A stretch of 41,012 nucleotides of DNA from Candidatus Omnitrophota bacterium. Its GTDB lineage: Bacteria > Omnitrophota > Gorgyraeia > Gygaellales > Profunditerraquicolaceae. Below, piece by piece: positions 203 to 41,012 of the stretch; position 1 is the first letter of the stretch; every line of letters begins with the position of its first letter. A program made the position numbers and the translations under genes. The notes beneath the pieces were generated by a model. That model had not been told where the DNA came from, made no database searches, and saw only the letters and a list, made by a program, of their open reading frames with translations. The stretch is taken from contig JBFZAQ010000096.1 of the NCBI GenBank assembly GCA_041308885.1, forward strand, positions 1 to 41,012. Direction: 5' to 3'.

Positions 203-3904
<3,702 letters not shown>

Positions 3905-3906
3905 GG

Positions 3907-4896
3907 CTAAATAATGAGCATCGCGTCACCGTAACTATAGAACCGATAACGTTGATTTATAGCTTCCTGATAACACCCGCGCAAAAAGTCCCGGCCCATA
4001 AAAGCGGCCACCAGCATTAAGAGAGTAGTTTTAGGCAAATGAAAATTGGTTAATAAACAGTCCACCAGCTTAAAAGAGTACCCGGGATAAATGAATAAAC
4101 TCGTCTCCCCCTGAATTTGCCCGGCGGCATAGGCCTCCAGCGCCCGCGCGCTGGTAGTGCCGACTGCGAATATTCTTCCCCGCCGGCCACGCGAGTCATC
4201 AATTAACTTACGCGTGGCCTCAGGAATGACAAAATTCTCGGCATCCATAACATGCTGCTCAATTGATTCAGCCTTGACCGGCTTAAACGTGCCGAGGCCA
4301 ACGTGCAATGTCACATAACCGATACGCACACCCTTATCTTCGAGTCGGCGTAATAATCCTTGAGTAAAATGCAGGCCCGCAGTCGGAGCCGCAACGGCTC
4401 CCGGGTGCAAGGCATACACAGTCTGATAGTATTCCACATCCAAGGCTTCGCTTGCGCGCTTAATATAAGGAGGAAGCGGCATCGACCCCAAAGAATATAT
4501 ATCTTCTAAATTCTGAGTATCAAACTCTATCTCTTGGCGGCTTTTGATAACCGCCGGCAGCACCCCGCCGCTTAAAACTATCCGCTCTCCGACTTTCAGG
4601 CGCGCCGGCTTAATTAAAGCCTTAAAAACACCCGATGGCAAGCGGTTCAACAAAAGCACTTCGACTTTGCCGCCGCTGAGGCGCCGGCCGAGAAGACGGC
4701 AAGGCATAACCTTAGTATCATTGAGAATTAGGATATCATCCGGCTGCAGATAGTCAATAATATCTTTACACAACCGATGCTCGATAGCGCTGCCTTGACG
4801 CTGAGCCACCAGCATTCGCGCAGCTTCCCGCTCAGAGAGCGGATACTGAGCGATGAGCTCGGGAGGTAAATAATAATCAAAGTCAGCTAAACGCAT
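3907..4896 (-). CDS. queA: S-adenosylmethionine:tRNA ribosyltransferase-isomerase
   Basis: N-terminus MRLADFDYYLPPELIAQYP and overall QueA-like sequence. The ATG overlaps the upstream stop by 1 nt. Confidence 0.9.
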   Translation of the reverse strand: MRLADFDYYLPPELIAQYPLSEREAARMLVAQRQGSAIEHRLCKDIIDYLQPDDILILNDTKVMPCRLLGRRLSGGKVEVLLLNRLPSGVFKALIKPARLKVGERIVLSGGVLPAVIKSRQEIEFDTQNLEDIYSLGSMPLPPYIKRASEALDVEYYQTVYALHPGAVAAPTAGLHFTQGLLRRLEDKGVRIGYVTLHVGLGTFKPVKAESIEQHVMDAENFVIPEATRKLIDDSRGRRGRIFAVGTTSARALEAYAAGQIQGETSLFIYPGYSFKLVDCLLTNFHLPKTTLLMLVAAFMGRDFLRGCYQEAINQRYRFYSYGDAMLII

Positions 4897-6044
4897 TATA
4901 TGTGGGTAATTTCAGCTCCCGGATAATAATATAACAAAATTTGTTCCGCGGTTACGCCTTCCTTGGCCATAAAATACGCCCCCCACTGACACATCCCTAC
5001 TCCGTGCGCCCACCCGGTACCGTCAACGATGACATTCTCTTTGACCACGGATATATTATAACGGTTGCTGCGGATGACATTGGGTCCGAGGATATTACGA
5101 AAATCTTTACCGCTCACCTTTACTCGCCGATCTTTGGTAATGATCAATAAATCCGTAATCCTCCCCGATGGATTCGTACCGCTGACTTTAATGTCAATCA
5201 TGCCTGCAACAGAATAACCCGCTTTTATCAACAACCACTGCGCATCCTTCTTGGCTATTTCCTGATGCCAGGAATAATGTGGAGACTCACGGCAATAATC
5301 ACACACCACTCCCTTTAAAGGAACAATATCAATATCCCACAAACGAGAGGCATCTTCGGTATGACCGGCACATGTAGCATGATAATAAGCCGGGAACAAA
5401 TTGCCCTTGTAACGCAGAATCAAACCTGCCGTCTGCTCAACTGCCTCATTAGTCCGATATCGCTCGGAAATCTTGCCTCCGTAGACCTGAGAATAGATAT
5501 CGCTGGTAACATCAAAATCATTATTCCGATTTTGGCGCATCTGGTAAACCGCGTAACTGCGACAGGCAATCGCCTGGGCCTTAAGCGCTTCCGGGGGCCA
5601 ATAGTGAGAAGCCTCATGGTAAAGGATCCCTTTAATATAATCTTCAATATTAATATGATTGACCGCCGCGAAATTGCCGTTATTCTTCCTGATAAACTCA
5701 ATATCTCCGCTGAATGAACGATCGCCGATATAAATCGGATCCGCCGCTGAGGTCTTAAGCAATAGTTTGCGCACAGCATAATTCTTTTGTCCCAGCCTGA
5801 TACCATTATTATCCGCGGCTACCGTAGCCTTAATATTTGCCCCCCGCCCGATAATCTTCAGAGTCGCCCCATCCAAGAGCTGATAGGCCCCGTCAGCTTT
5901 AAGTAATAGCGAGGCCTCATCCTGAACAACAGCAACCCGAATAGGCCGACTTAGCTCTACAGATTCGGCGGATAGGGTAAAGCGAAAAGCGAAAAGTAAG
6001 AAAAATATGAGCGGGATTAGCCCGCGCCTTAGCGTCGCGACCAT
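4896..6044 (-). CDS. SpoIID/LytB-domain protein (secreted lytic transglycosylase / amidase-enhancer family)
   Basis: Signal peptide, followed by YHEASHYWPPEALKAQAIACRSYA, HATCAGHTE and GHGVGMCQWGA motifs typical of SpoIID/LytB. Confidence 0.8.
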   Translation of the reverse strand: MVATLRRGLIPLIFFLLFAFRFTLSAESVELSRPIRVAVVQDEASLLLKADGAYQLLDGATLKIIGRGANIKATVAADNNGIRLGQKNYAVRKLLLKTSAADPIYIGDRSFSGDIEFIRKNNGNFAAVNHINIEDYIKGILYHEASHYWPPEALKAQAIACRSYAVYQMRQNRNNDFDVTSDIYSQVYGGKISERYRTNEAVEQTAGLILRYKGNLFPAYYHATCAGHTEDASRLWDIDIVPLKGVVCDYCRESPHYSWHQEIAKKDAQWLLIKAGYSVAGMIDIKVSGTNPSGRITDLLIITKDRRVKVSGKDFRNILGPNVIRSNRYNISVVKENVIVDGTGWAHGVGMCQWGAYFMAKEGVTAEQILLYYYPGAEITHI

Positions 6045-6330: not shown

Positions 6331-6874
6331 CTTGACTCTTTTTTTTTATGCGGCTGCGCTCTAATTCCGAATACAAACACCCGCAGTATTTCTGACAGTA
6401 GATCCCTTGGGCCCTGGCTTTATTATGCGCCTCCCGGAAACCGGGACGAAAATCTTCATAGTAGAAATCTACTGCCTCTTGAAGCCCGATATCCGTACCT
6501 ATTGTCTTTAGCCTCTCCTGATCCTGATAAGGACTAACCAAAAGGGTTGTCGAGAAATAAGGAATACCCTTTTCCTTGGCGATTTTGGCGGTCTGGCGTA
6601 AACGCAGCTCCCAACAGATGGCGCACCGACCGGGAATTGCTTCCCGCATATTCACCGCGCGAAAGAATTCCTGAGGTTCATAGGCAGCATATAAAACCTC
6701 GACCCCCGCAGATTGACTAAGCGCCTCTACTGCCTGCCGGCGCATTTTATACTCGCTTAGAGGATGGATATTCGAATTACAAAATAACCCCACCACCTCA
6801 AACCCCTTAGCCCGCAGGCTCTCCAAAGGATAAATCAAGCATGGGGCGCAACATATGTGGAAGAGTAATTTCAT
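6302..6874 (-). CDS. queH: Epoxyqueuosine reductase QueH (DUF208 family)
   Basis: MKLLFHICCAPC N-terminal cysteine motif plus CAICW and CGC cysteines typical of QueH. Confidence 0.8.
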   Translation of the reverse strand: MKLLFHICCAPCLIYPLESLRAKGFEVVGLFCNSNIHPLSEYKMRRQAVEALSQSAGVEVLYAAYEPQEFFRAVNMREAIPGRCAICWELRLRQTAKIAKEKGIPYFSTTLLVSPYQDQERLKTIGTDIGLQEAVDFYYEDFRPGFREAHNKARAQGIYCQKYCGCLYSELERSRIKKKSQGRLTKVNQG

Positions 6875-6878
6875 AATC

Positions 6879-7301
6879 TCATTCTTTTAGCGGGGTAATA
6901 TACTTTTTGATAAATTTTTCGATATATCGCACTACTTCTTCTTTAGCATTGCTGGGGCTAGCGGCGACCCAAACTGCGAAATTATAAAGGGTTTGCGTGT
7001 CTACTCTCATCCATTTGTTATTATTATAAAGCATATAAAACAGAGTTGTAATGGCTATTCTTTTGTTGCCATTCTGAAACGGATGATTCTTAATCATTAG
7101 ATAGAAAATCACGCTCGTCTTGCCGGCAAAAGTGGGGTATAGGTCCTTTTTAGCAAAAGACTGAAACGGCGCTGATAGACAGCTCTCCAACACGTTAGGA
7201 TAACGGGTGCCAAAATCAGGAATCGGTTCATTAAAAGACAGGCTTTGCTGCGCTAATCTGAAAGCCACTCTCTCAACCTCTTCGACCATTAATGGCTGCA
7301 T
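6879..7301 (-). CDS. doc: Doc (death-on-curing) / Fic-fold toxin
   Basis: HPFQNGNKRIA matches the Doc variant of the Fic motif (H-x-F-x-N-G/A-N-K-R). 140 aa. It overlaps the upstream small HTH gene by 1 nt. Confidence 0.85.
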   Translation of the reverse strand: MQPLMVEEVERVAFRLAQQSLSFNEPIPDFGTRYPNVLESCLSAPFQSFAKKDLYPTFAGKTSVIFYLMIKNHPFQNGNKRIAITTLFYMLYNNNKWMRVDTQTLYNFAVWVAASPSNAKEEVVRYIEKFIKKYITPLKE

Positions 7302-7570
7302 TATGCCTGCCCTAAAAGTTTTAGAACTTCCCCGTATTCCTGAACGGTTTTTTCCACCGCCTTATCAATTTTATTCTTTGCGGCATCTCCCAAAGGTCTA
7401 CCACTAACGGCCACTGTGTTTTCCCTGACATAATCTTGGGGAATAGCGAAGCTGCGGCCTACCCTAATGGCTTTAATTTTACCCTGCTTTACTTGCTTAT
7501 ACACGGCAATCCGGCTTAATCCCATAATCTTGGCCAGTTCGGCAATGGAAATAAATTCTTTCTCTTTCAT
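7301..7570 (-). CDS. Excisionase/MerR-type HTH DNA-binding protein, probable antitoxin of Doc
   Basis: ISIAELAKIMGLSRIAVYKQVKQGKIKAIRVGRSFAIP is an excisionase-family HTH. There is a GGAG RBS, and the gene sits immediately upstream of doc with an overlap. Confidence 0.7.
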   Translation of the reverse strand: MKEKEFISIAELAKIMGLSRIAVYKQVKQGKIKAIRVGRSFAIPQDYVRENTVAVSGRPLGDAAKNKIDKAVEKTVQEYGEVLKLLGQA

Positions 7571-7601
7571 AACTATCTCCTATATAACAATTTATAACAC
7601 A

Positions 7602-7661
7602 ATTAACCTATGTTAACTAAAACTATCAGGTTAACAGTTGTTAACCCAAATATAGGTTAAC
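7602..7661 (-). promoter_or_regulatory. Cluster of GTTAAC palindromes; candidate operators of the HTH-doc operon
   Basis: GTTAAC occurs at 7612, 7630, 7640 and 7656, with ATTAACC at 7602. All lie within 60 bp between a possible promoter (TTGACC 7688-7683, TATGTT 7664-7659, minus strand) and the RBS. Confidence 0.4.
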
Positions 7662-7720
7662 ATACCAGACTATGTCTGTCAAGGTCAATCTGGATTTAAA
7701 CCGGGGAGCGAAGTTTAGCT

Positions 7721-7858
7721 TTAGCCTTGTTTAGCTTCGCACTTATTGCACACACCCGGCTCTTTAATCGAGGGCTTTACACCAAACAGTTTCAGGGGTA
7801 TCCACTTATACAGGAATCCTTCCAGCGGGACTTTGCATTTCCTACACTTCTTAGGCAT
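7721..7858 (-). CDS. Unannotated 45-aa zinc-ribbon-like protein
   Basis: ATG at 7858 is preceded by AGGAG about 7 nt upstream. Hand translation: MPKKCRKCKVPLEGFLYKWIPLKLFGVKPSIKEPGVCNKCEAKQG, with CxxC...CxxC. It is below the ORF-track length cutoff. Confidence 0.6.
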   Translation of the reverse strand: MPKKCRKCKVPLEGFLYKWIPLKLFGVKPSIKEPGVCNKCEAKQG

Positions 7859-7904
7859 GATACACTCCTGTCCCATTAATTATGCGTTTGCGGGGTTCAT
7901 CGCG

Positions 7905-8050
7905 GGCATAAAGACTGCTGCGGGGCTTTTTTACGCACGCAAAGCAAATCCCTGCGCAAATTATAGAGGCGCCCAGAAAAACGCAAGCCTTACCACCCGC
8001 AAACACGTCTTAGCCTCAAACCCAATAAAACCAAAAACGTCCCTATTTTT
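7905..8050. repeat. A-unit direct repeat, copy 1 (uninterrupted)
   Basis: About 90 percent identical by eye to 8085-8119 plus 8240-8352. The shared block is caaatccctgcgcaaattatagaggcgcccagaaa.acgcaagccttaccacccgcaaacacg... Confidence 0.85.
7960..7986 (-). promoter_or_regulatory. Candidate sigma70-type promoter inside A-unit 1, reading toward the 45-aa ORF
   Basis: On the minus strand: TTGCGT (7986-7981), 15-nt spacer, perfect TATAAT (7965-7960). The same hexamers are conserved in A-unit 2 at 8288-8283 and 8267-8262. The short spacer lowers confidence. Confidence 0.35.
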
Positions 8051-8084
8051 CTTGCACTTTACAGACTTGTAGAACCCTCCCAAC

Positions 8085-8352
8085 GGCATAAAGCTTGCTG
8101 CGGGGCTTTTTTGCGCACGAAAATTTTTTCCGTGCGCTACGGTTTGCCGCTCGCTACGGTACCTACTTACGCAAAGCCGATTACGTACCTTCGCTCGCGG
8201 CAAATCCTTGCAGACTTTTGCCAAAAATTTTCTAACGCCCGCAAACCAAATCCCTGCGCAAATTATAGAGGCGCCCAGAAATACGCAAGCCTTACCACCC
8301 GCAAACACGCCTTAATCTCAAATACAATAAAACCAGAAACGTCCCCTATTTT
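8085..8352. repeat. A-unit direct repeat, copy 2, interrupted by hairpin element B1
   Basis: 8085-8119 aligns to 7905-7939 and 8240-8352 aligns to 7938-8050. The intervening ~120 nt has no counterpart in copy 1. Confidence 0.85.
8113..8239 (-). repeat. B element copy 1: ~125-nt rod-like imperfect hairpin
   Basis: The reverse complement aligns end to end with 9102-9225 and 9363-9485 (ggcgttagaaaattttt...ggaaaaaatttt). Internal stems are ttgccgc/gcggcaa and ggtac/gtacc. Confidence 0.85.
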
Positions 8353-8357
8353 ACCAA

Positions 8358-8876
8358 CTATGCCCGTTGTAAAACTTCCTTAAATTTTTTGTAGAATAAA
8401 GACTTTCCCAGCCCGCTATAATATTTAATATTAATATCATAATCCTTAAGAGCATTTTTTGCTTTATCGCTAATAAACTCCGGATTCTTAATACGGAACC
8501 ATGCTTGATATATCGACATATCCTCAGGTATGTCGTTAGTAAGCATGATATACATTTCTACGGCGTCCAATAATAAATATTCCGTCTGCGCAGGATTAAA
8601 TTCTAATAAAGCAGACTGATCCCTATCCGCGTGTTTAAAGAAATTCTCCGCCTCGTTGACGGCGGATAAATACAAGCTAGCCTTGTCTTGTCTAATAATA
8701 TCTAATGCTAAACCTTTCACAAGTGATTTAACCCCTTTAGATCCTGATATATCCATTAATATCTGATGCGCAGCTGCCGTTAGTGTATGAATCGATATCG
8801 GGTCAGCGTCATTAAAAAAAAGACTAAGAGCAACGTCTAATTGGCGCCGTGCGGCGTCGATTTTTGATATTTTCAT
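8358..8876 (-). CDS. Hypothetical 172-aa protein, predicted all-helical, no recognised catalytic motif
   Basis: Clean ATG ORF. I recognise no Shine-Dalgarno sequence and no family. It is flanked by inverted B elements. Confidence 0.6.
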   Translation of the reverse strand: MKISKIDAARRQLDVALSLFFNDADPISIHTLTAAAHQILMDISGSKGVKSLVKGLALDIIRQDKASLYLSAVNEAENFFKHADRDQSALLEFNPAQTEYLLLDAVEMYIMLTNDIPEDMSIYQAWFRIKNPEFISDKAKNALKDYDINIKYYSGLGKSLFYKKFKEVLQRA

Positions 8877-9101
8877 TTGATTTTAGTTTAAATATCGCAA
8901 ATTATCGTAACAACTAAAAGAGTCTTTGTTCACTCGCGACAATCTCATTGTTCGTAAGAAATATCCGCCTTTTTGACTTTAGCCTTAATCACCTATACGG
9001 ACCATTCACAACAGATCCAAGTAGCGGATGACTCAAATCACGTGCCACGGATCAGAGCGGCAACCAGCGATTTGAAATTTTGCGCAGGGATTTGGTTTGC
9101 A

Positions 9102-9225
9102 GGCGTTAGAAAATTTTTTGCAACAGTGCGCAAGGATTTACAGCGAGCGGAGGTTAGTTACCGTATTACGTAAGTCGTAACCGCAGCGAGCTGTAAACCG
9201 TAGCGCACGGAAAAAATTTTAGCCC
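9102..9225 (+). repeat. B element copy 2 (pairing extends to about 9078-9250)
   Basis: Stems gtgcgc/gcgcac, tttacagc/gctgtaaa and gttac/gtaac. The left flank tttgcgcagggatttggtttgc is the reverse complement of the A-unit segment that flanks B1. Confidence 0.85.
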
Positions 9226-9337
9226 GCAAAGCAAATCACGGAGCAAAATTTGTGGCGTAGCACAAACGCCGGCGCGGAAAACCATCCCAAGGCCGAACCC
9301 GCTATATGCGACGCTCGGAAAAATTTTTTCCTCGTCT

Positions 9338-9507
9338 AGATTTTATGACTTTGATGTGCGGCGCGTTAGAAAATTTTTGGCAAAAGTCTGCGAGGATTTA
9401 CAGCGAGCGGAGGTTAGTTATCGTATTACGTAAGTCGTAACCGCAGCGAGCTGTAAACTGAAGCAGACGGCAAAAATTTTAGCGCCGCGCACAAAGTCAT
9501 AAAATCT
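9338..9507 (+). repeat. B element copy 3 with extended basal stem (~170-nt hairpin)
   Basis: agattttatgacttt (9338-9352) pairs perfectly with aaagtcataaaatct (9493-9507). The core 9363-9485 is about 90 percent identical to copy 2, with stem gtctgc/gcagac replacing gtgcgc/gcgcac. Confidence 0.85.
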
Positions 9508-9566
9508 CTGCTGGAAAAAATTTTCCGTTCACAAGCGAATCTACAGAACCCCACTCCTCTTCTATA

Positions 9567-10634
9567 TCAAAACAACTCTTCTTGTTTCTCGTAGGGCATG
9601 CCGAAGTGTTCGTAGGCAAGTTTTGTGCAGATGCGGCCGCGGGAGGTGCGCTTGAGGTAGCCGCTCTTAAGGAGATACGGCTCGACGGTGTCCACGATAG
9701 TATCTACTTCTTCATTGAGACTGGCGGCTAGCGACTCTACACCCACGGGTCCGCCGCCATAAGATTGCAGCATAGTCTTTAAGACTCTACGATCCAGATC
9801 ATCGAATCCGGCCCGATCCACCCCCAGATCATCGAGGATCTTAGCCACGGGAGACTTCTCGATAACCGCAAGCTTCTGCACCTGGGCGTAATCGCGCACG
9901 CGGCGCAAAAGCCGATTTGCCACCCGGGGCGTACCTCGGGCCCGCCGGGCAATCTCATCCGCGGCTTCCGCCGCCACATCGATACTTAAGGTTTTTGCCG
10001 AATGCAGTATAATCGTAGCCAAGTCCTCGAGCTTATAGAAGTCCAGATGGTAAAACATCCCAAATCGGCCGCGCAGCGGCGCCGAAATCAGGCCGGCCCG
10101 GGTCGTCGCCCCGACTAAAGTAAAAGGCTTGAGATTAAACTTGATCGTCTTGGCGTAAGGCCCCTTATCAATCACAAAGTCAATCTGAAAATCCTCCATC
10201 GCCGGATACAGGAATTCCTCAACCACGCGGGAGAGCCGATGGATCTCATCGATGAAAAGAATATCGCCCTTCTCCAGATTAGTCAGGATACCGATTAAAT
10301 CCCCGGCCCGCTCAATCGCCGGGCCGGAGGTTGAGGTAATCTTAGCATCCATTTCCCGGGAAATTATATGGGCAAGGGAAGTCTTACCTAATCCGGGGGG
10401 TCCGGAAAGCAGAATATGCTCCAGCGGCTCGCTGCGCTGTTTGGCCGCAGAAATGCAGACTTTTAAATTCTCGAGGGTGTCTTTTTGGCCGATAAATTCA
10501 TTCAACCGGCTTGGCCGCAGGGAGAGATTTAATACAATATCCTCATCGGTTTCCTGAGTTCCGGCAACTACCCTTTGCTCAAGATTGTTATCGACATCCT
10601 GACCCTTAATGAGTTTCTGCCGCGTCTGTGACAT
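9567..10634 (-). CDS. ruvB: Holliday junction branch-migration helicase RuvB
   Basis: LRPSRLNEFIGQ, Walker A GPPGLGKTSLA and DEIHRL motifs. Confidence 0.92.
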   Translation of the reverse strand: MSQTRQKLIKGQDVDNNLEQRVVAGTQETDEDIVLNLSLRPSRLNEFIGQKDTLENLKVCISAAKQRSEPLEHILLSGPPGLGKTSLAHIISREMDAKITSTSGPAIERAGDLIGILTNLEKGDILFIDEIHRLSRVVEEFLYPAMEDFQIDFVIDKGPYAKTIKFNLKPFTLVGATTRAGLISAPLRGRFGMFYHLDFYKLEDLATIILHSAKTLSIDVAAEAADEIARRARGTPRVANRLLRRVRDYAQVQKLAVIEKSPVAKILDDLGVDRAGFDDLDRRVLKTMLQSYGGGPVGVESLAASLNEEVDTIVDTVEPYLLKSGYLKRTSRGRICTKLAYEHFGMPYEKQEELF

Positions 10635-12347: not shown

Positions 12348-12357
12348 ATGCTAGTTA

Positions 12358-12437
12358 TAAATGACCAATTCCCAAATCTCAAATCCCAATGAATTACCAA
12401 TGACCAATGTCTAATTGGGTTTGGTAACTGGTTATTG
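12358..12437. repeat. NNNCCAA-heptamer palindromic element, copy 2 (right arm truncated at the infB stop)
   Basis: Sequence aatgaccaattcccaaatctcaaatcccaatgaattaccaatgaccaatgtctaattgggtttggtaactggttatt. Confidence 0.8.
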
Positions 12438-20037: not shown

Positions 20038-20044
20038 AGAATAT

Positions 20045-20164
20045 AAAATCCCAATGGCCAAATCCCAAACTCCAATGAATGTCCAATGAATCAATTACCA
20101 ACGCGCTATTGGAAATTGGTTATTGGTAATTCATTGGGGCTTGGTAATTGGAATTTGGTCATTT
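20045..20164. repeat. NNNCCAA-heptamer palindromic element, copy 3
   Basis: Sequence aaaatcccaatggccaaatcccaaactccaatgaat...attcattggggcttggtaattggaatttggtcattt. It contains the rseP stop codon. Confidence 0.9.
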
Positions 20165-21238
20165 AAATAGTTTCGCTATCTTATCCCCAAAGAACCTTAC
20201 CACATCATTATACGTCACTACAACCGCCAGCATTATCATTATCGTCATGCCTACGCGGGACACATAAGCTTCGGCTCTCTGGCTTAAGCGCTTCCCGGTG
20301 ACTTTCTCTATCCCCAGCAATACCAGATGCCCGCCGTCCAATATCGGGAGCGGCAAAACATTAAACAAGGCCAAGCTGACACTCAACACCGCGATAAGAT
20401 GCACCACCGCGATAAAACCCATATGCGCGGCTTCCGAGGTAATATAAAAAATGCCTAACGGGCCGGTAACCGACTCTCTAACCGACATCTTACCCGTGAT
20501 CATACGCCAGAGGGCTTTATAAGTCAGCACGGTTAAGTCTAAGGTTTTTTTAGCAGCCAATATACCGGACTGAACAAAGCTATGTTTAACCGTAATCAGC
20601 TCCTCATGCGGCGTTATGCCTAGTAAACCAACGCTCCTTTTTTGTCCCAGCACATCAGCAAAGTCTTTGGCTTTAATTGCGGTCCTGATGCTTAATTCCC
20701 GGCTCCCGCGAACTATCCGTAACTCTGCCGTTGTCGGGGCCTGCTTAGCTTGAATGGTCTCCTGTAACTCATCCCAATTATGCACCCGCTTTCCATCCAC
20801 GGACATAATCGTATCCCCGGCCTGCAAGCCCGCTTCCTGAGCTCCGTACCCCTCAATTACACTGCCGACCTTTGACGTAAGCGTGGGGTAACCAACAAGA
20901 AAAATAAACCAAAAGAATACAAAACCCAGCGCGTAATTCAATAACGGCCCGCAGATAATCACTTTGGCCCGCGCTCCCGGTGATTTAGCTAAATATTCAT
21001 CCGAGGCTCCTTTACTCTCCTCAATTGTATCCCCGGCTAATTTAACGTATCCGCCAAGAGGAATAGCGCTGATACTATATTCGGTCTGGCCGCGCTTTTT
21101 CTTGGCTAATATCGGGCCAAAACCAAGCGAGAATTTTTCCACCCGGATACCGACTCGCCGGGCCATATAATAGTGGCCGAATTCATGAACGATGATTAGA
21201 ACACCTAATACTAATAAGAAAATAAAAAGTGATAGCAT
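20159..21238 (-). CDS. rseP: RIP zinc metalloprotease RseP (site-2 protease)
   Basis: HEFGHY motif, one PDZ domain, C-terminal LDGG motif, GGAG RBS. Confidence 0.9.
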   Translation of the reverse strand: MLSLFIFLLVLGVLIIVHEFGHYYMARRVGIRVEKFSLGFGPILAKKKRGQTEYSISAIPLGGYVKLAGDTIEESKGASDEYLAKSPGARAKVIICGPLLNYALGFVFFWFIFLVGYPTLTSKVGSVIEGYGAQEAGLQAGDTIMSVDGKRVHNWDELQETIQAKQAPTTAELRIVRGSRELSIRTAIKAKDFADVLGQKRSVGLLGITPHEELITVKHSFVQSGILAAKKTLDLTVLTYKALWRMITGKMSVRESVTGPLGIFYITSEAAHMGFIAVVHLIAVLSVSLALFNVLPLPILDGGHLVLLGIEKVTGKRLSQRAEAYVSRVGMTIMIMLAVVVTYNDVVRFFGDKIAKLFK

Positions 21239-21267
21239 ATTATTCTCCGTCGCCGTAAGTTAACTGT

Positions 21268-21327
21268 CCAATGACCAAATCCCAATTGGAAATTGGTTAT
21301 TGGGATTTCATTGGGATTTGGTCATTT
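21268..21327. repeat. NNNCCAA-heptamer palindromic element, copy 4 (short)
   Basis: Sequence ccaatgaccaaatcccaattggaaattggttattgggatttcattgggatttggtcattt. It contains the dxr stop codon. Confidence 0.9.
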
Positions 21328-30740: not shown

Positions 30741-30757
30741 AAAACACTCCTCTGTAT

Positions 30758-30869
30758 GAATGACCAATGACCAAATCCCAAATCCCAATGAATTACCAAT
30801 AACCAAATCCCAATTAGACATTGGTCATTGGGGTTTCATTGGGATTTGGTCATTGGGGTTTGGTCATTT
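30758..30869. repeat. NNNCCAA-heptamer palindromic element, copy 5
   Basis: Sequence gaatgaccaatgaccaaatcccaaatcccaatgaat...ttcattgggatttggtcattggggtttggtcattt. It contains the stop codon of the 596-aa gene. Confidence 0.9.
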
Positions 30870-32654
30870 CTTAAGTATCTTCTCCAGCTCCTGCTTCGCC
30901 GGAGCTCCTTTAGTGGAAAATATCTCTTGGTTATCCACCAAGTAGCTCGGGCCAAACATAATCTCCAGTTCCTTATTCAGGCGGATATTTTCGCGCAATA
31001 ACTTCTTGCCTTCTTCACCTTGCGCGCAGGACTTGATCTTAAGCGTATCCGCTGCGCCCTTTAGACAATCATCCCACCAGGAAGAGCTTAAGTTGCCGGA
31101 CCGGCAAACCAGATAATCCCAGAAGGTCTCGGGATAATATTTCTCGATGCACACGCCTTTTAAATATTCTTCTACCTCTACTGATCCCTTGGCCGCGTCA
31201 AAACCAGCGTCTTTCTCAACGGCTAAAAAATGTACCTCGGGAGAAAAAGAACGAACGACTTCCAGCGTCTTATTCGCGCCGGCATCGAAGAGGCTTACAA
31301 ATATATCTAAAGCACCCGCCTTCCTACCGCGTTTGAGAAAGAAAGAAACCCCGCTCACCTGAGGCTTAACCAGATAAACATCCCCTACAAGATCGACCCT
31401 ATCTTGAAGCATTTCAAAGTTCTTCTGCCGCTCTATGTCTTTATCAAAAACATAGGCCGGCAGACGGCTTAAGCCTAATTTGGCAATCATCTCCTGAGCG
31501 CCGGGATCCGGATAATACAAAGTAGACACTGTTAATCCCGGAAATGGCTTCTTTAAGAAATCAACAAATTGCTGCGGGCTGCAAACCTTACACGCCTTAG
31601 GGGTAATCACCGTCAAGCCCACTTTAACCGGCTCGCTAAAAACGCAGCTGGCTTTTAACGTTGCGGGATCCTGGCAAGTGCCAACCAGCCCTTCTTGCTT
31701 ACAATTATCGTCGGAAAAACAGCGCGGCAAAAATTCGACGATCTCCCGGTCATCGGCAATATCCGCAGACAAACGGAGTTGTTCGGCTTGGTGAGAAATA
31801 ATCTTTCTATCTTGGATATTTAACTTCAGAACTCCGAGCTTTCTCCCCTGCCATGACGGCCACACAATGATCGTCTGCCCGATTTTAGAAACGATTTCTC
31901 CTTGCGGATGCGCAATACCGGCGATAAGCAGATCGATCCCCTTGACTTGGTCTAACAGTTTCGCATCTTCGGCATCACTCTGGTGGCTCAAAAGTATAAT
32001 CAAATCAACTTTCTTGCCCCTAAGCTCAGCTACAGTTTTGGCCGCCGCGGACTTAGGATCAATGATCGGTAACCCACCGGATTTCGGCGCGGCACTAAGC
32101 GGGGTAAGGCCGATAATGCCGATTTTTAACCCGGAAACCTCTTTAAGTACATACGGCAAAAAAGGCTTTGCTTGAATATTATAGGAAAGAAAGGGGATCT
32201 TGGTCTTGGCCGCGTTATCTAATAGATATTCTTTGCCGAAATTAAACTCATCGTCTCCAACGGCAACCGCATCATAGCCCATGACCTCCATGCCCTTCAA
32301 CTGCAAATTAGTGCGCTGCATATCCAACTGCACATTCTGGGTATACTGATCCAAAAGGCCGCCGGCAAAGTAACTTCCGGAGTCAACCAGAATAACTCCC
32401 GGCGAGCTTTTGCGCAGCTGCTTGATCAGCGTGGCCCGGCGGGCCAATCCCCCGTCGCGCTCAATCGGGCAGTTGCATTGATAAAGCATCGCGTGGGTCT
32501 GACCGGTATACAAAATAGTCAGTTCTTCAGCCTGAACATAAGACGCAGGACGCAGGACGCAGGACGCAATAAGAAGGATTAGAAACGCGCAACTTTTTCC
32601 TCCTAAGCTTGCGTCTTGCGTCTTGCGTCTTGCGTCTATAATTTTCGCGCTCAT
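30864..32654 (-). CDS. Secreted fusion: 5-prime-nucleotidase/metallophosphatase-like N-terminal domain with substituted metal ligands, plus Cys-rich thioredoxin/DsbA-like C-terminal domains
   Basis: ILYTGQTHA, VDSGSYFAG, GDDEFNFG, LSHQS and AGIAH align to the ND-HG, DAGD, GNHEFD, SH and GGHSH motifs of UshA-type enzymes, but most ligands are replaced. The C-terminus has CKVC (CxxC) and a DsbA-like end. The ATG overlaps the serA TGA (ATGA). Confidence 0.6.
   Translation of the reverse strand: MSAKIIDARRKTQDASLGGKSCAFLILLIASCVLRPASYVQAEELTILYTGQTHAMLYQCNCPIERDGGLARRATLIKQLRKSSPGVILVDSGSYFAGGLLDQYTQNVQLDMQRTNLQLKGMEVMGYDAVAVGDDEFNFGKEYLLDNAAKTKIPFLSYNIQAKPFLPYVLKEVSGLKIGIIGLTPLSAAPKSGGLPIIDPKSAAAKTVAELRGKKVDLIILLSHQSDAEDAKLLDQVKGIDLLIAGIAHPQGEIVSKIGQTIIVWPSWQGRKLGVLKLNIQDRKIISHQAEQLRLSADIADDREIVEFLPRCFSDDNCKQEGLVGTCQDPATLKASCVFSEPVKVGLTVITPKACKVCSPQQFVDFLKKPFPGLTVSTLYYPDPGAQEMIAKLGLSRLPAYVFDKDIERQKNFEMLQDRVDLVGDVYLVKPQVSGVSFFLKRGRKAGALDIFVSLFDAGANKTLEVVRSFSPEVHFLAVEKDAGFDAAKGSVEVEEYLKGVCIEKYYPETFWDYLVCRSGNLSSSWWDDCLKGAADTLKIKSCAQGEEGKKLLRENIRLNKELEIMFGPSYLVDNQEIFSTKGAPAKQELEKILKK
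32541..32637. repeat. Intragenic heptamer palindrome inside the signal-peptide codons of the 596-aa gene
   Basis: agacgcaggacgcaggacgcaggacgcaa (32541-32569) against ttgcgtcttgcgtcttgcgtcttgcgtct (32609-32637). The mismatches are G:T wobble positions. Confidence 0.85.
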
Positions 32655-36282: not shown

Positions 36283-36302
36283 ATACACCTCCGTATTAAA
36301 TT

Positions 36303-36405
36303 TCCAATTACCAATGACCAAATCCCAATGAATACCCAATTGCCAAATCCCAATTGGGTATTGGTTATTGGTAATTCATTGGAATTTGGGGCTTGGTCAT
36401 TGGTA
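36303..36405. repeat. NNNCCAA-heptamer palindromic element, copy 6
   Basis: Sequence tccaattaccaatgaccaaatcccaatgaatacccaattgcc...ggtaattcattggaatttggggcttggtcattggta. Confidence 0.9.
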
Positions 36406-36412
36406 TTTTTGC

Positions 36413-37291
36413 TTATACTACGCTCCAATCCGCTTCCCTCAACAACAGCTCGATCACTCTCTGGGTCATATGGTCATCCAGAGGAATTTGCTCTTTCTTG
36501 GCAATTTCGGCTAAGACCAGATAAGTTTTAACCTGCCGGCGCGCCTGAGGCTCCAATTCTTTAACGATATCTTTTTCCTTGCTGTCGATTTCTTCGCGGG
36601 GCATCCCCTTCATCGCTAAATCAACTTTCGCGCGCCTGAGTTGATCATCCAGTTGACGCTGCACAAACGCCTGCGGCAATTTAATCTCCAGGTCTTCGGT
36701 CACGGCTGTAATAACTTCATGCTCGATCCTCTGGCGCTGCAGATTATCCTTTTGCAGCATGAGTTGGCGCTTAACCGATTCCTGGAGTTCCTTTAAATTC
36801 GGATATCCGACGCTCTTAGCCAAAGCATCGTCGATGTTTTCAACTTTACGCATCTCTTTAAAGCTATCGATTGAGCGCTTGACTTCATCATCGGTAACCT
36901 CAATCTGCTTAAATCCGACCTTGAGGCCTTTATAATTCTTTAACTTTATCTGCGGACTGACTTCCACCGTAGCCTTAAAAGACAAATTTGACCGGTCAAG
37001 CTTAACCTCGCTTATGCTCGGCAACTCGATAACCTCCAACTGCTCAGCTTTGACCACTGCATCGTAAATCTCCGGAATAAGCTCCTTTAAGACTTGCTCG
37101 GTAGCAGCTGCGGAGAAATTCTTTTCAATAATATCCCGCGGGGCTGCCCCCGGCCGAAAACCCGGGACCTTGGCGTTTTTGGCTATCTCTTTAAAGACCG
37201 TTTCGAACTTATTCTTGACTACATCGCCTTCAGCCTGAATATCGATTTCCCTTTTCGTAGCATCTATTTTTTTGACTTCAACCTTTTTCAT
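36413..37291 (-). CDS. tig: Trigger factor lacking the PPIase domain and the distal C-terminal arm
   Basis: GFRPGAAP ribosome-binding signature and N domain, joined directly to C-domain-like sequence. It is 292 aa against about 430 aa in canonical trigger factors. Confidence 0.8.
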   Translation of the reverse strand: MKKVEVKKIDATKREIDIQAEGDVVKNKFETVFKEIAKNAKVPGFRPGAAPRDIIEKNFSAAATEQVLKELIPEIYDAVVKAEQLEVIELPSISEVKLDRSNLSFKATVEVSPQIKLKNYKGLKVGFKQIEVTDDEVKRSIDSFKEMRKVENIDDALAKSVGYPNLKELQESVKRQLMLQKDNLQRQRIEHEVITAVTEDLEIKLPQAFVQRQLDDQLRRAKVDLAMKGMPREEIDSKEKDIVKELEPQARRQVKTYLVLAEIAKKEQIPLDDHMTQRVIELLLREADWSVV

Positions 37292-40611: not shown

Positions 40612-40633
40612 AGCGCTCGACCTTATATTCTTG

Positions 40634-40736
40634 AAATCCCAATGACCAAATCCCAAGCCCCAATGAACGACCAATTACCAATTCTCAATTGAGATTTGGT
40701 TATTGGAAATTCATTGGGATTTGGAAATTGGGATTT
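40634..40736. repeat. NNNCCAA-heptamer palindromic element, copy 7
   Basis: Sequence aaatcccaatgaccaaatcccaagccccaatgaac...aaattcattgggatttggaaattgggattt. Confidence 0.9.
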
Positions 40737-40743
40737 AGTGATT

Positions 40744-41012
40744 TTATAATACCTTTTCTATATTCTTAATCTCTTTGAGCAACTTAGTAAGAGCCTTATA
40801 ATCAATCATATTCGGCCCGTCACACGGCGCTTCGTCCGGCCGCGGATGGACCTCGAGGAACAATCCGTCACAACCAAAAGCAGCTGCCGCCCGCGCTAGG
40901 CCGGCCACAAACTCCCGCCGGCCGCCCGATGAACCGCCTTTCCCGCCCGGCAGCTGAACACTATGCGTGGCGTCGTAAATGACCGGATACCCGAAATCCC
41001 GCATGATCTTCA
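40744..41012 (-). CDS. kdsA: 2-dehydro-3-deoxyphosphooctonate aldolase (KDO-8-P synthase), C-terminal part; the gene continues beyond the window
   Basis: [15 protein letters not shown] and LFLEVHP motifs. The reading frame stays open to the window edge (..KIMRDFGYP). Confidence 0.88.

Follow-up and report, generated by a model that had tools for sequence, protein, structure and literature searches.

A duplicated unit with and without a 122-nt segment

Two neighbouring units in an Omnitrophota genome, A1 and A2, are close copies of each other, and A2 carries a segment, B1, that is missing from A1. Was B1 gained by A2 or lost by A1? The units lie on contig C96 of a 1.69-Mb, 233-contig MAG (G000), and the window, that is the whole stretch of DNA analysed, comprises 41,012 nt of this contig. 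A sequence-only reading of the locus had offered both answers, the insertion of a MITE-like hairpin into a pre-existing short palindrome or the palindrome-mediated deletion of its apex. The evidence below points to the second. A1 is probably a hairpin copy whose apex was lost by hairpin-promoted deletion after a local duplication, and A2 is the intact copy. The features of the two units are as follows.

7905–7968, plus strand: A1, core-less hairpin element; left outer stem, one GC clamp (ACGCACGC) and right outer stem, without the core and both AAAATTTT boxes
7969–8050, plus strand: A1 tail, a flank of ~82 nt copied along with the element; ends in the short dispersed motif ATAAAACCAAAAACGTCCCTATTTT (8025–8050)
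8051–8084, no strand: spacer between the A units; 34 nt, unique, without significant likeness to the sequence after A2
8085–8271, plus strand: A2, full element; imperfect palindrome of ~187 nt, left outer stem 8085–8119, right outer stem 8236–8271
8113–8234, plus strand: B1, the segment that A2 has and A1 is without; one GC clamp, both boxes and the core
8272–8352, plus strand: A2 tail, 92% identical to the A1 tail, directly 3′ of a minus-strand 172-aa ORF; dispersed motif at 8327–8352

In a pairwise alignment A1 (7905–8050) and A2 (8085–8352) are identical at 131 of 142 positions (92%) outside the extra segment, which agrees with the ~90% first estimated by eye. Residues 7905–7932 of A1 match 8085–8112 of A2 at 26 of 28 positions, and 7933–8046 match 8235–8349 at 105 of 114. 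The 122 nt of 8113–8234 are present in A2 only, with an exact placement that is ambiguous by a few bases in the global alignment. The A2 junctions read ...TTTTTTGCGCACG / AAAATTTT...TTCTAACGCC / CGCAAACCAAATCCC, and A1 reads ...TTTTTTACGCACGCAAAGCAAATCCC. A CG is common to both sides of the A2 indel and can be assigned to either. The junction strings, the common CG and the absence of B1 from A1 had thus been described correctly. Both A blocks were also recovered by the repeat search of the window.

The likeness between the units stops at 8050/8352; past these points 119 of 500 shuffles align as well, showing that a unique 34-nt spacer separates the units and that they are not strictly tandem. 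An extension of the duplication into the end of the 172-aa ORF, with a 9-nt ATAAAGACT repeat as the junction, was dropped because the likeness past the tail is not significant. In its full length (82–90 nt) the tail occurs at this locus only, while its last ~26 nt recur elsewhere; in relatives, the tail is not conserved beyond these ~26 nt. Taken by itself, the internal palindrome ascribed to A1 is not a stable hairpin, its fold being on a par with that of shuffles (z = +0.39 and −0.09). The nhmmer match in A1 covers the right outer stem alone.

Structure of the element and its copies in the genome

The full element is an imperfect palindrome of ~187 nt, with the layout outer stem, GC clamp, AAAATTTT box, 121-nt core, box, clamp and outer stem. 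The covariance model of the 121-nt core (CM R1) defines the ~187-nt rod hairpin family of Omnitrophota. A2 has the parts of a family member (a match to the 121-nt core, the AAAATTTT boxes and an outer stem of ~35 bp), with an nhmmer score of 190.6 bits, a CM R1 core match at 8117–8242 of 115.5 bits and a fold z of −3.6. A1 keeps the outer stem and one clamp. BLAST and nhmmer searches found eight full copies in this MAG, three on C96 and one each on C200, C125, C209, C6 and C159, together with four solo left arms on C203, C2, C17 and C115. A1 is the sole core-less copy in this genome. The two other full copies in the window are both inverted relative to A2.

9073–9256, minus strand: B2, second full copy; nhmmer 184.3 bits, CM 124.8 bits
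9334–9512, minus strand: B3, third full copy; 55 nt past the ruvB stop, sense orientation

B3 corresponds in position to the one element that related metagenome contigs have between ruvB and queH. It also has an extra GGAAAA(A)ATTTTTTCC box pair outside the outer stem (window 9315–9327 and ~9497–9512), which makes a third palindromic layer. Modules of 20 nt and 48 nt lie inside some copies of the element, the 48-nt module in two. The eight full copies have no conserved ORF, and no element copy of G000 contains a coding insert; the solo left arms run into housekeeping genes or other repeats.

When the eight full copies are aligned, the A-type flanks are seen to continue the palindrome at unrelated loci, as in the comparison of GGCATAAAGCTTGCTGCGGGGCTTTTTTGCGCACG ... 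CGCAAACCAAATCCCTGCGCAAATTATAG at this locus with CATAAATCTTGCTCTGGGGTTTATTCGCGCACG ... CGTGCGCGAATATACCCCTCCGCAAGATTTATG on C200. The flanks of B are therefore its outer stem and not a separate palindrome. Homologous outer stems surround the core in every copy examined, as far as the contigs reach (41 rows in all, of which L026 ends at a contig end on the left side). The proposal of a MITE-like hairpin B inserted into a pre-existing palindrome is not borne out, since B is always flanked by homologous outer stems in all eight full copies and the others examined. Nor does B behave as an autonomous unit; in the genome-wide check of its copies it was never apart from A-type flanks, the result that the sequence-only reading had itself named as telling against an autonomous B.

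The relations among the copies also bear on the history of A1. Over 47 nt, the right arms of A1 and the full copy C209 are 96% identical, and the whole of A2, flanks and core, is 87.6% identical to the same copy. The arms of both A1 and A2 are mosaic, with a left arm like those of C125/C200 and a right arm like those of C209/B2. This arrangement would be compatible with an origin of A1 by recombination of two different full copies in direct orientation, taking the left arm of one and the right arm of the other, and chimeras of repeat families joined at shared palindromes do occur elsewhere in the genome (C2 and C17). However, A2 has the same mosaic arms and has kept its core, so that the mosaic is older than the split of A1 and A2, and a clean internal loss at an orthologous site is documented in G191 (below). 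An origin of A1 by such recombination is therefore quite improbable.

Core-less copies in related genomes

Two sister genomes carry the element at the same site in different states. The element is full in G190 (C5) and core-less in G191 (C8), with flanks 86–89% identical. The G191 copy reads ...GCGCGCATTAGAAAATTTTCAGCGCAC..., namely the outer stems and a single GAAAATTTTC box; exactly the core and one box are missing. At a second, tRNA-adjacent site the element is full in G190 and G192 and core-less in G204, where the junction is GGTATTGTT / ACGCGCGC / TCC, or in a longer reading GGTATTGTT / ACGCGCGC / TCCTCAATACC. This junction is of the same type as that of A1, GGGGCTTTTTT / ACGCACGC / AAAGC, with the core, both boxes and one clamp gone. 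G191, G186 and G203 are without the element at the tRNA-adjacent site, and the flanks of G190 (with) and G191 (without the whole element) are 93% identical there.

The single-box signature CTGAAAATTTTCTAATG occurs exactly 12 times in the order, against 0.06 expected by chance. Two of the 12 occurrences were inspected, and both consist of the outer stems without the core. G112, G011 and G049 have two to three single-box short forms per genome, given which the short form may propagate as such too.

The junctions thus are of two kinds, box-to-box and clamp-to-clamp, and they sit in self-complementary motifs, GAAAATTTTC and CGCRCGC. A self-complementary motif gives the same reading on both arms of a hairpin, so that the apex lies between direct repeats formed by these motifs. 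In A1 and G204, the two clamp-type junctions, the retained clamp is preceded by an A, as it is on the right arm. This A is unexplained by a simple clamp-to-clamp crossover unless the ancestral left arm had an A too. The right clamp of A2 today is CGCCCG, and only CG is shared as a direct repeat. If the parent of A1 had a right clamp of the C209 type, as A1 and the right arm of C209 suggest, the repeat would have been 6–7 nt long, CGCACG or possibly ACGCACG.

Origin of the core-less copy

Palindrome-mediated deletion of the apex, one of the two possibilities first put forward, gains support from the core-less copies at orthologous sites in sister species and from their junctions in short direct repeats. 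In the simplest course of events, one hairpin element and ~82–90 nt of its right flank would have been duplicated locally to give A1 and A2. A1 would then have lost an apex of 122 nt, comprising the core, both boxes and one clamp. The CGCRCG(C) clamps and the GAAAATTTTC boxes would serve as short direct repeats that are brought together by the hairpin, and slipped-strand mispairing or template switching over the folded hairpin in replication would delete the interval while one copy of the repeat is kept. Direct repeats at the base of an inner hairpin are the classical substrate of slipped-strand palindrome deletion, and slippage is the mechanism that we infer here.

The direction of the A1 event would follow from parsimony, as the exact locus has no outgroup. 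Exact-protein look-ups of the 172-aa ORF and RuvB found no same-species contigs for an empty site here, and the best metagenome relatives of RuvB are only 75–80% identical. In the copies examined the core always has outer stems, and the whole of A2 is a paralogue of C209, which together place A1 as the derived, deleted form. The recurrence of core-less copies at orthologous sites argues likewise for deletion rather than for a small mobile element entering an empty site.

The opposite polarity has B (clamp, box, core, box) as a separate mobile hairpin that inserts in the centre of a shorter palindrome, with A1 and the other short forms as unfilled targets. The 10-nt GAAAATTTTC box on either side of the core does resemble a target duplication. 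Short forms are found in several genomes, at times two to three in each, several unrelated repeats of this genome have a perfect palindrome of 20 nt nested at their centres, and some family copies contain the 20-nt and 48-nt modules. Yet in the copies examined the core never occurs without homologous outer stems, and the short forms are rare: 12 exact signatures compare with 141 genomes that each have between one and more than 15 full copies. The A2 indel (GCGCACG... and ...TTTTCTA) does not end in inverted repeats. The flanks and the core of A2 are both related to the full copy C209, and at one site the whole element is present in G190 and absent from G191. Finally, independent pairs of filled and short sites differ in their boundaries, box-to-box in one and clamp-to-clamp in another. 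Insertion of an element with fixed ends would give one junction type; different junctions between events are accounted for by sporadic deletion at whichever direct repeat is used. We therefore regard the insertion of B into A2 as unlikely.

A wider reading is that of a layered, centre-targeted origin. The rod may be a class-wide structured element, either an RNA in operon spacers or the ssDNA substrate of some enzyme, built from nested palindromic layers (box, outer stem, box, core), whose core once invaded the AAAATTTT centre of a shorter hairpin. Short forms of the A1 kind would then either have reverted or be remaining targets of a centre-targeting process that is still active. The 20-nt CCTGCCTGCCGGCAGGCAGG palindrome (see the last section) suggests that palindrome centres are true insertion targets in these genomes. 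We give this reading a small but real chance, somewhat better than that of the simple insertion.

With the apex deletion as the preferred explanation, the local event is of an ordinary mutational kind, and its resolution yields the anatomy of an apparently undescribed repeat family. It also yields a rule: when a long stem contains self-complementary motifs, these serve as direct repeats too, which explains why the apex is shed at fixed places. The rule could aid the annotation of truncated copies in these poorly known uncultured bacteria.

The promoter-like motif of the A units

Both A units carry the sequence TTGCGT-15-TATAAT on the minus strand, as the sequence-only reading had noted.

7960–7986, minus strand: TTGCGT-15-TATAAT in A1; −10 at 7960–7965, −35 at 7981–7986, read directly
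8262–8288, minus strand: TTGCGT-15-TATAAT in A2; −10 at 8262–8267, −35 at 8283–8288, read directly

The motif is common to A1 and A2 because the units are duplicates. It might be supposed that the A units are promoter modules, A1 driving a CxxC ORF of 45–51 aa and A2 the transcription of the hairpin, with the unit without B as a selected regulatory variant. The TATAAT is perfect in both units, the −35 matches at four of six positions, and A1 lies ~85 nt upstream of the small CxxC ORF. The 15-nt spacer, however, falls outside the range of a promoter scan with spacers of 16–18 nt, which did not report the A1 motif. The TATAAT is a variant of the terminal CATAAAT motif of the element and is also found at the end of the C209 copy, there without a −35, and the −35 lies in the tail, overlapping a weak terminator-like hairpin. 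A selected promoter function for the units has a low prior and would be very unlikely.

Distribution and conservation of the family

In the order, 141 genomes out of 234 and 78 genera out of 121 have the CM R1 core, the copy number per genome ranging from 1 to more than 15. Sampling of 401 genomes of the phylum gave 69 with the core, all in the same class and including other orders. The family is thus present in ~60% of the genomes of one Omnitrophota order and reaches across the class.

The core is conserved as a structure. An alignment of 40 sequences has 95.7% of its cells paired and shows changes on both sides in 19 of 30 pairs. None of 500 shuffles reaches the observed values, and slid controls give at most 0.077 against 0.311. 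Nearly all the pairs are Watson-Crick, and several asymmetric, pyrimidine-rich internal loops are invariant. G-U versus A-C pairs in the well-aligned stems gave no strand signal (4 versus 4).

Rfam, 6S RNA included, has no match at gathering score over the window, and at E up to 5 the region 7600–9700 gives one chance-level match, STnc220, with 20 bits against a gathering score of 60. A 6S RNA was rejected for want of an Rfam match. Among the 15 best-ranked of 5,977 papers matching on palindromes, MITEs or REPINs, none names Omnitrophota or Omnitrophica. The rod hairpin repeat family, class-wide in Omnitrophota, has apparently not been described so far.

Genomic context of the element

At 44 loci the element lies in sense between co-directional genes in 30, in antisense in 8, between divergent genes in 2 and between convergent genes in none. 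The bias has a binomial p of 5e-4, or 3e-3 without the RuvB-anchored loci. GC skew was compared with orientation in G000 and set aside, as it only mirrors the gene strand.

The element is often retained at the same gene junction across genera. Directly after the ruvB stop it is found as B3 in the window, in four metagenome contigs whose RuvB is 75% identical, and in G157. The genes ruvB and queH are normally 5–30 nt apart, with 52 of 80 loci syntenic. In the window the gap is 2.7 kb (6874–9567) and holds B3, B2, the 172-aa orphan ORF, A2, A1, the small CxxC ORF and an HTH-Doc pair. The ruvB-queH junction is an insertion hotspot, widened to 0.2–2.7 kb by various inserts in the closer relatives (L043–L122).

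The 172-aa orphan ORF (window 8358–8876, minus strand) has relatives of 37–68% identity patchily spread over many phyla, among them Omnitrophota, Gracilibacteria, Peregrinibacteria, Planctomycetia, Binataceae, Francisellaceae and others. It has no Pfam or NCBIfam match. One relative, in L198, adjoins an MNT/HEPN toxin-antitoxin pair, and the ORF probably belongs among accessory genes for defence or toxin-antitoxin functions. The idea that it travels with the hairpins was rejected; elements occur at 1 of 17 relative loci (L197–L213), where the element is not adjacent to the gene.

Two orthologous elements of G190 and G191 equal or exceed the surrounding genes in conservation (96% versus 89%, and 90–92% versus 88%). 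The family combines retention at the same gene junctions across genera with gain, loss and truncation within a genus. It behaves as a gene-less intergenic repeat prone to gain and loss, resembling ERIC or REPIN. The ends of the copies on C200, C125, C159, G190:C5 and G190:C8 have no common direct repeat, and the empty sites of congeners are too diverged to give the ends at base level.

Candidate mobilisers and comparison with known repeats

Y1_Tnp genes are common in the order (192 of 234 genomes). Of 31 Y1 loci in the order, only one has the element nearby, and that one is a decayed IS200 tnpA. The element is present in 14 of 20 Y1-negative genomes listed, with at least 15 copies in G123, 13 in G088 and 9 in G016, and many Y1-positive genomes are without it. 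A RAYT as mobiliser was therefore rejected, having neither adjacency to nor co-occurrence with the element. The sole Y1-domain gene of G000 (C116, 402 aa) has no element nearby, and the two small GIY-YIG ORFs of this genome are not flanked by one.

The C116 gene deserves mention on its own account. This Y1_Tnp (HUH) gene (971–2179, minus strand) encodes a protein with a predicted membrane segment and a long C-terminal extension, and is preceded by a c-di-GMP-I riboswitch (RF01051, 53 bits; leader L123:1975–2059). A transposase-like domain under c-di-GMP control, as this arrangement would predict, is unusual.

ERIC or IRU sequences are gene-less imperfect palindromes of ~127 bp that occupy many intergenic regions family-wide in Enterobacteriaceae, form stable stem-loops, have no known mobilising enzyme and show TA ends and a TA duplication (PMC2759123). 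The rod has no sequence kinship with them, is ~187 nt long, has a 121-nt core that is conserved and covaries class-wide, shows no TA ends or TA duplication and is strongly biased to the sense orientation. Wilson and Sharp in 2006 reportedly described shorter ERIC variants that result from internal deletions and longer ones that carry insertions at fixed internal positions. The core-less and the module-bearing copies of the rod parallel these short and long variants.

REPINs or BIMEs, REP doublets moved by Y1 transposases of the RAYT type, are long hairpins of inverted repeats, intergenic, multi-copy and persistent in a lineage, which are more alike within than between genomes (PMC3116915, PMC3337134). 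The rod shares the long inverted-repeat hairpin, the intergenic multi-copy state, the persistence in a lineage and the greater likeness of copies within a genome, but it is not a doublet of a short REP, has a low copy number (1–15) and has no link to a RAYT that we could find. The REP tag of a REPIN is GTAG/CGTC (PMC3733652). The left arm of the rod has an invariant GCTACGG (CTAC), which is not beside a local REP-type hairpin.

The rod resembles MITEs such as Correia/NEMIS and MITEAba12 in being small, non-coding, dispersed and present or absent between close relatives. As in MITEs, this short multi-copy element has terminal inverted repeats, since the whole of it is palindromic. It differs in that no target-site duplication is evident, no parent insertion sequence with matching ends was found, and its full length, beyond the termini, is conserved class-wide.

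In the precise or near-precise excision of Tn10 and Tn5, as in slipped mispairing at hairpins generally, palindromes are deleted between flanking short direct repeats. The rod is similar: here too a long inverted repeat loses its apex, and the junctions lie in short direct repeats at the hairpin base. It differs in that the direct repeats are self-complementary motifs inside the stem (the AAAATTTT box and the CGCGCG clamp), and hence the outer part of the palindrome survives.

Integron attC sites were also considered and rejected. The ends of the rod fail the RYYYAAC ... GTTRRRY pattern (the box GTTAGAA misses the last position), A2 is inverted relative to B2 and B3, and the copies on other contigs are dispersed singly. 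Overall, the rod passes the defining tests of neither REPIN-RAYT systems nor classical MITEs, and in behaviour it is closest to ERIC and REPIN.

Other repeats in the window and the genome

A second, unrelated palindromic family, made of CCAATGACCAAATCCCAAT / ATTGGGATTTGG units, was found by repeat search in seven copies of ~60–120 nt in the window, at these positions.

82–208
12356–12422
20042–20170
21265–21326
30752–30874
36294–36414
40630–40749

The 20-nt perfect palindrome CCTGCCTGCCGGCAGGCAGG occurs 26 times in the genome, nearly always at the centre of an unrelated palindromic repeat. Its hosts include three rod copies and copies of the CCAAT family; examples are C6:4760–4779, C125:3584–3603, C2:4368–4387, C154:13022–13041 and C203:15029–15048. 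Judged by its positions, it looks like a centre-targeting mini-element.

A GC-rich repeat of ~100 nt (CCAGCGGGTGACTGCG...GGCGGGGTGGCGCAGCAGGCAGGACCCGCTGG) has nine copies in G000, often a few hundred bases from a rod. They are at C6:~4990–5096, C125:~3250–3346 and C200:~4620–4730 and ~5300–5410, and on C17, C87, C136, C155 and C2. The copies on C2 and C17 are chimeras of this repeat with a left arm of the rod, that on C2 being joined at the 20-nt palindrome.

In genus g24 the 3′ end of a tRNA gene (GTCGCGGGAGGCTCA) is duplicated round a GC-rich insert of 100–190 nt, at the site of the G190 rod. These duplications, which look like att-type repeats from small integrating elements, are the following.

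L217 (G171:C38)
L218 (G178:C49)
L220 (G192:C11)

The short motif AAAATAGGGGACGTTTCT(A/G)TTTTTT, which ends the two tails on the minus strand as AAAATAGGGGACGTTTCTGGTTTTAT (window 8025–8050 and 8327–8352), occurs eight times in the genome, the others being on C4, C125, C136 (twice), C137 and C154. It is also present in other genera (G019, G043, G087, G014 and G015). One copy lies directly after a tRNA gene, and one is in a hairpin with an inverted partner.
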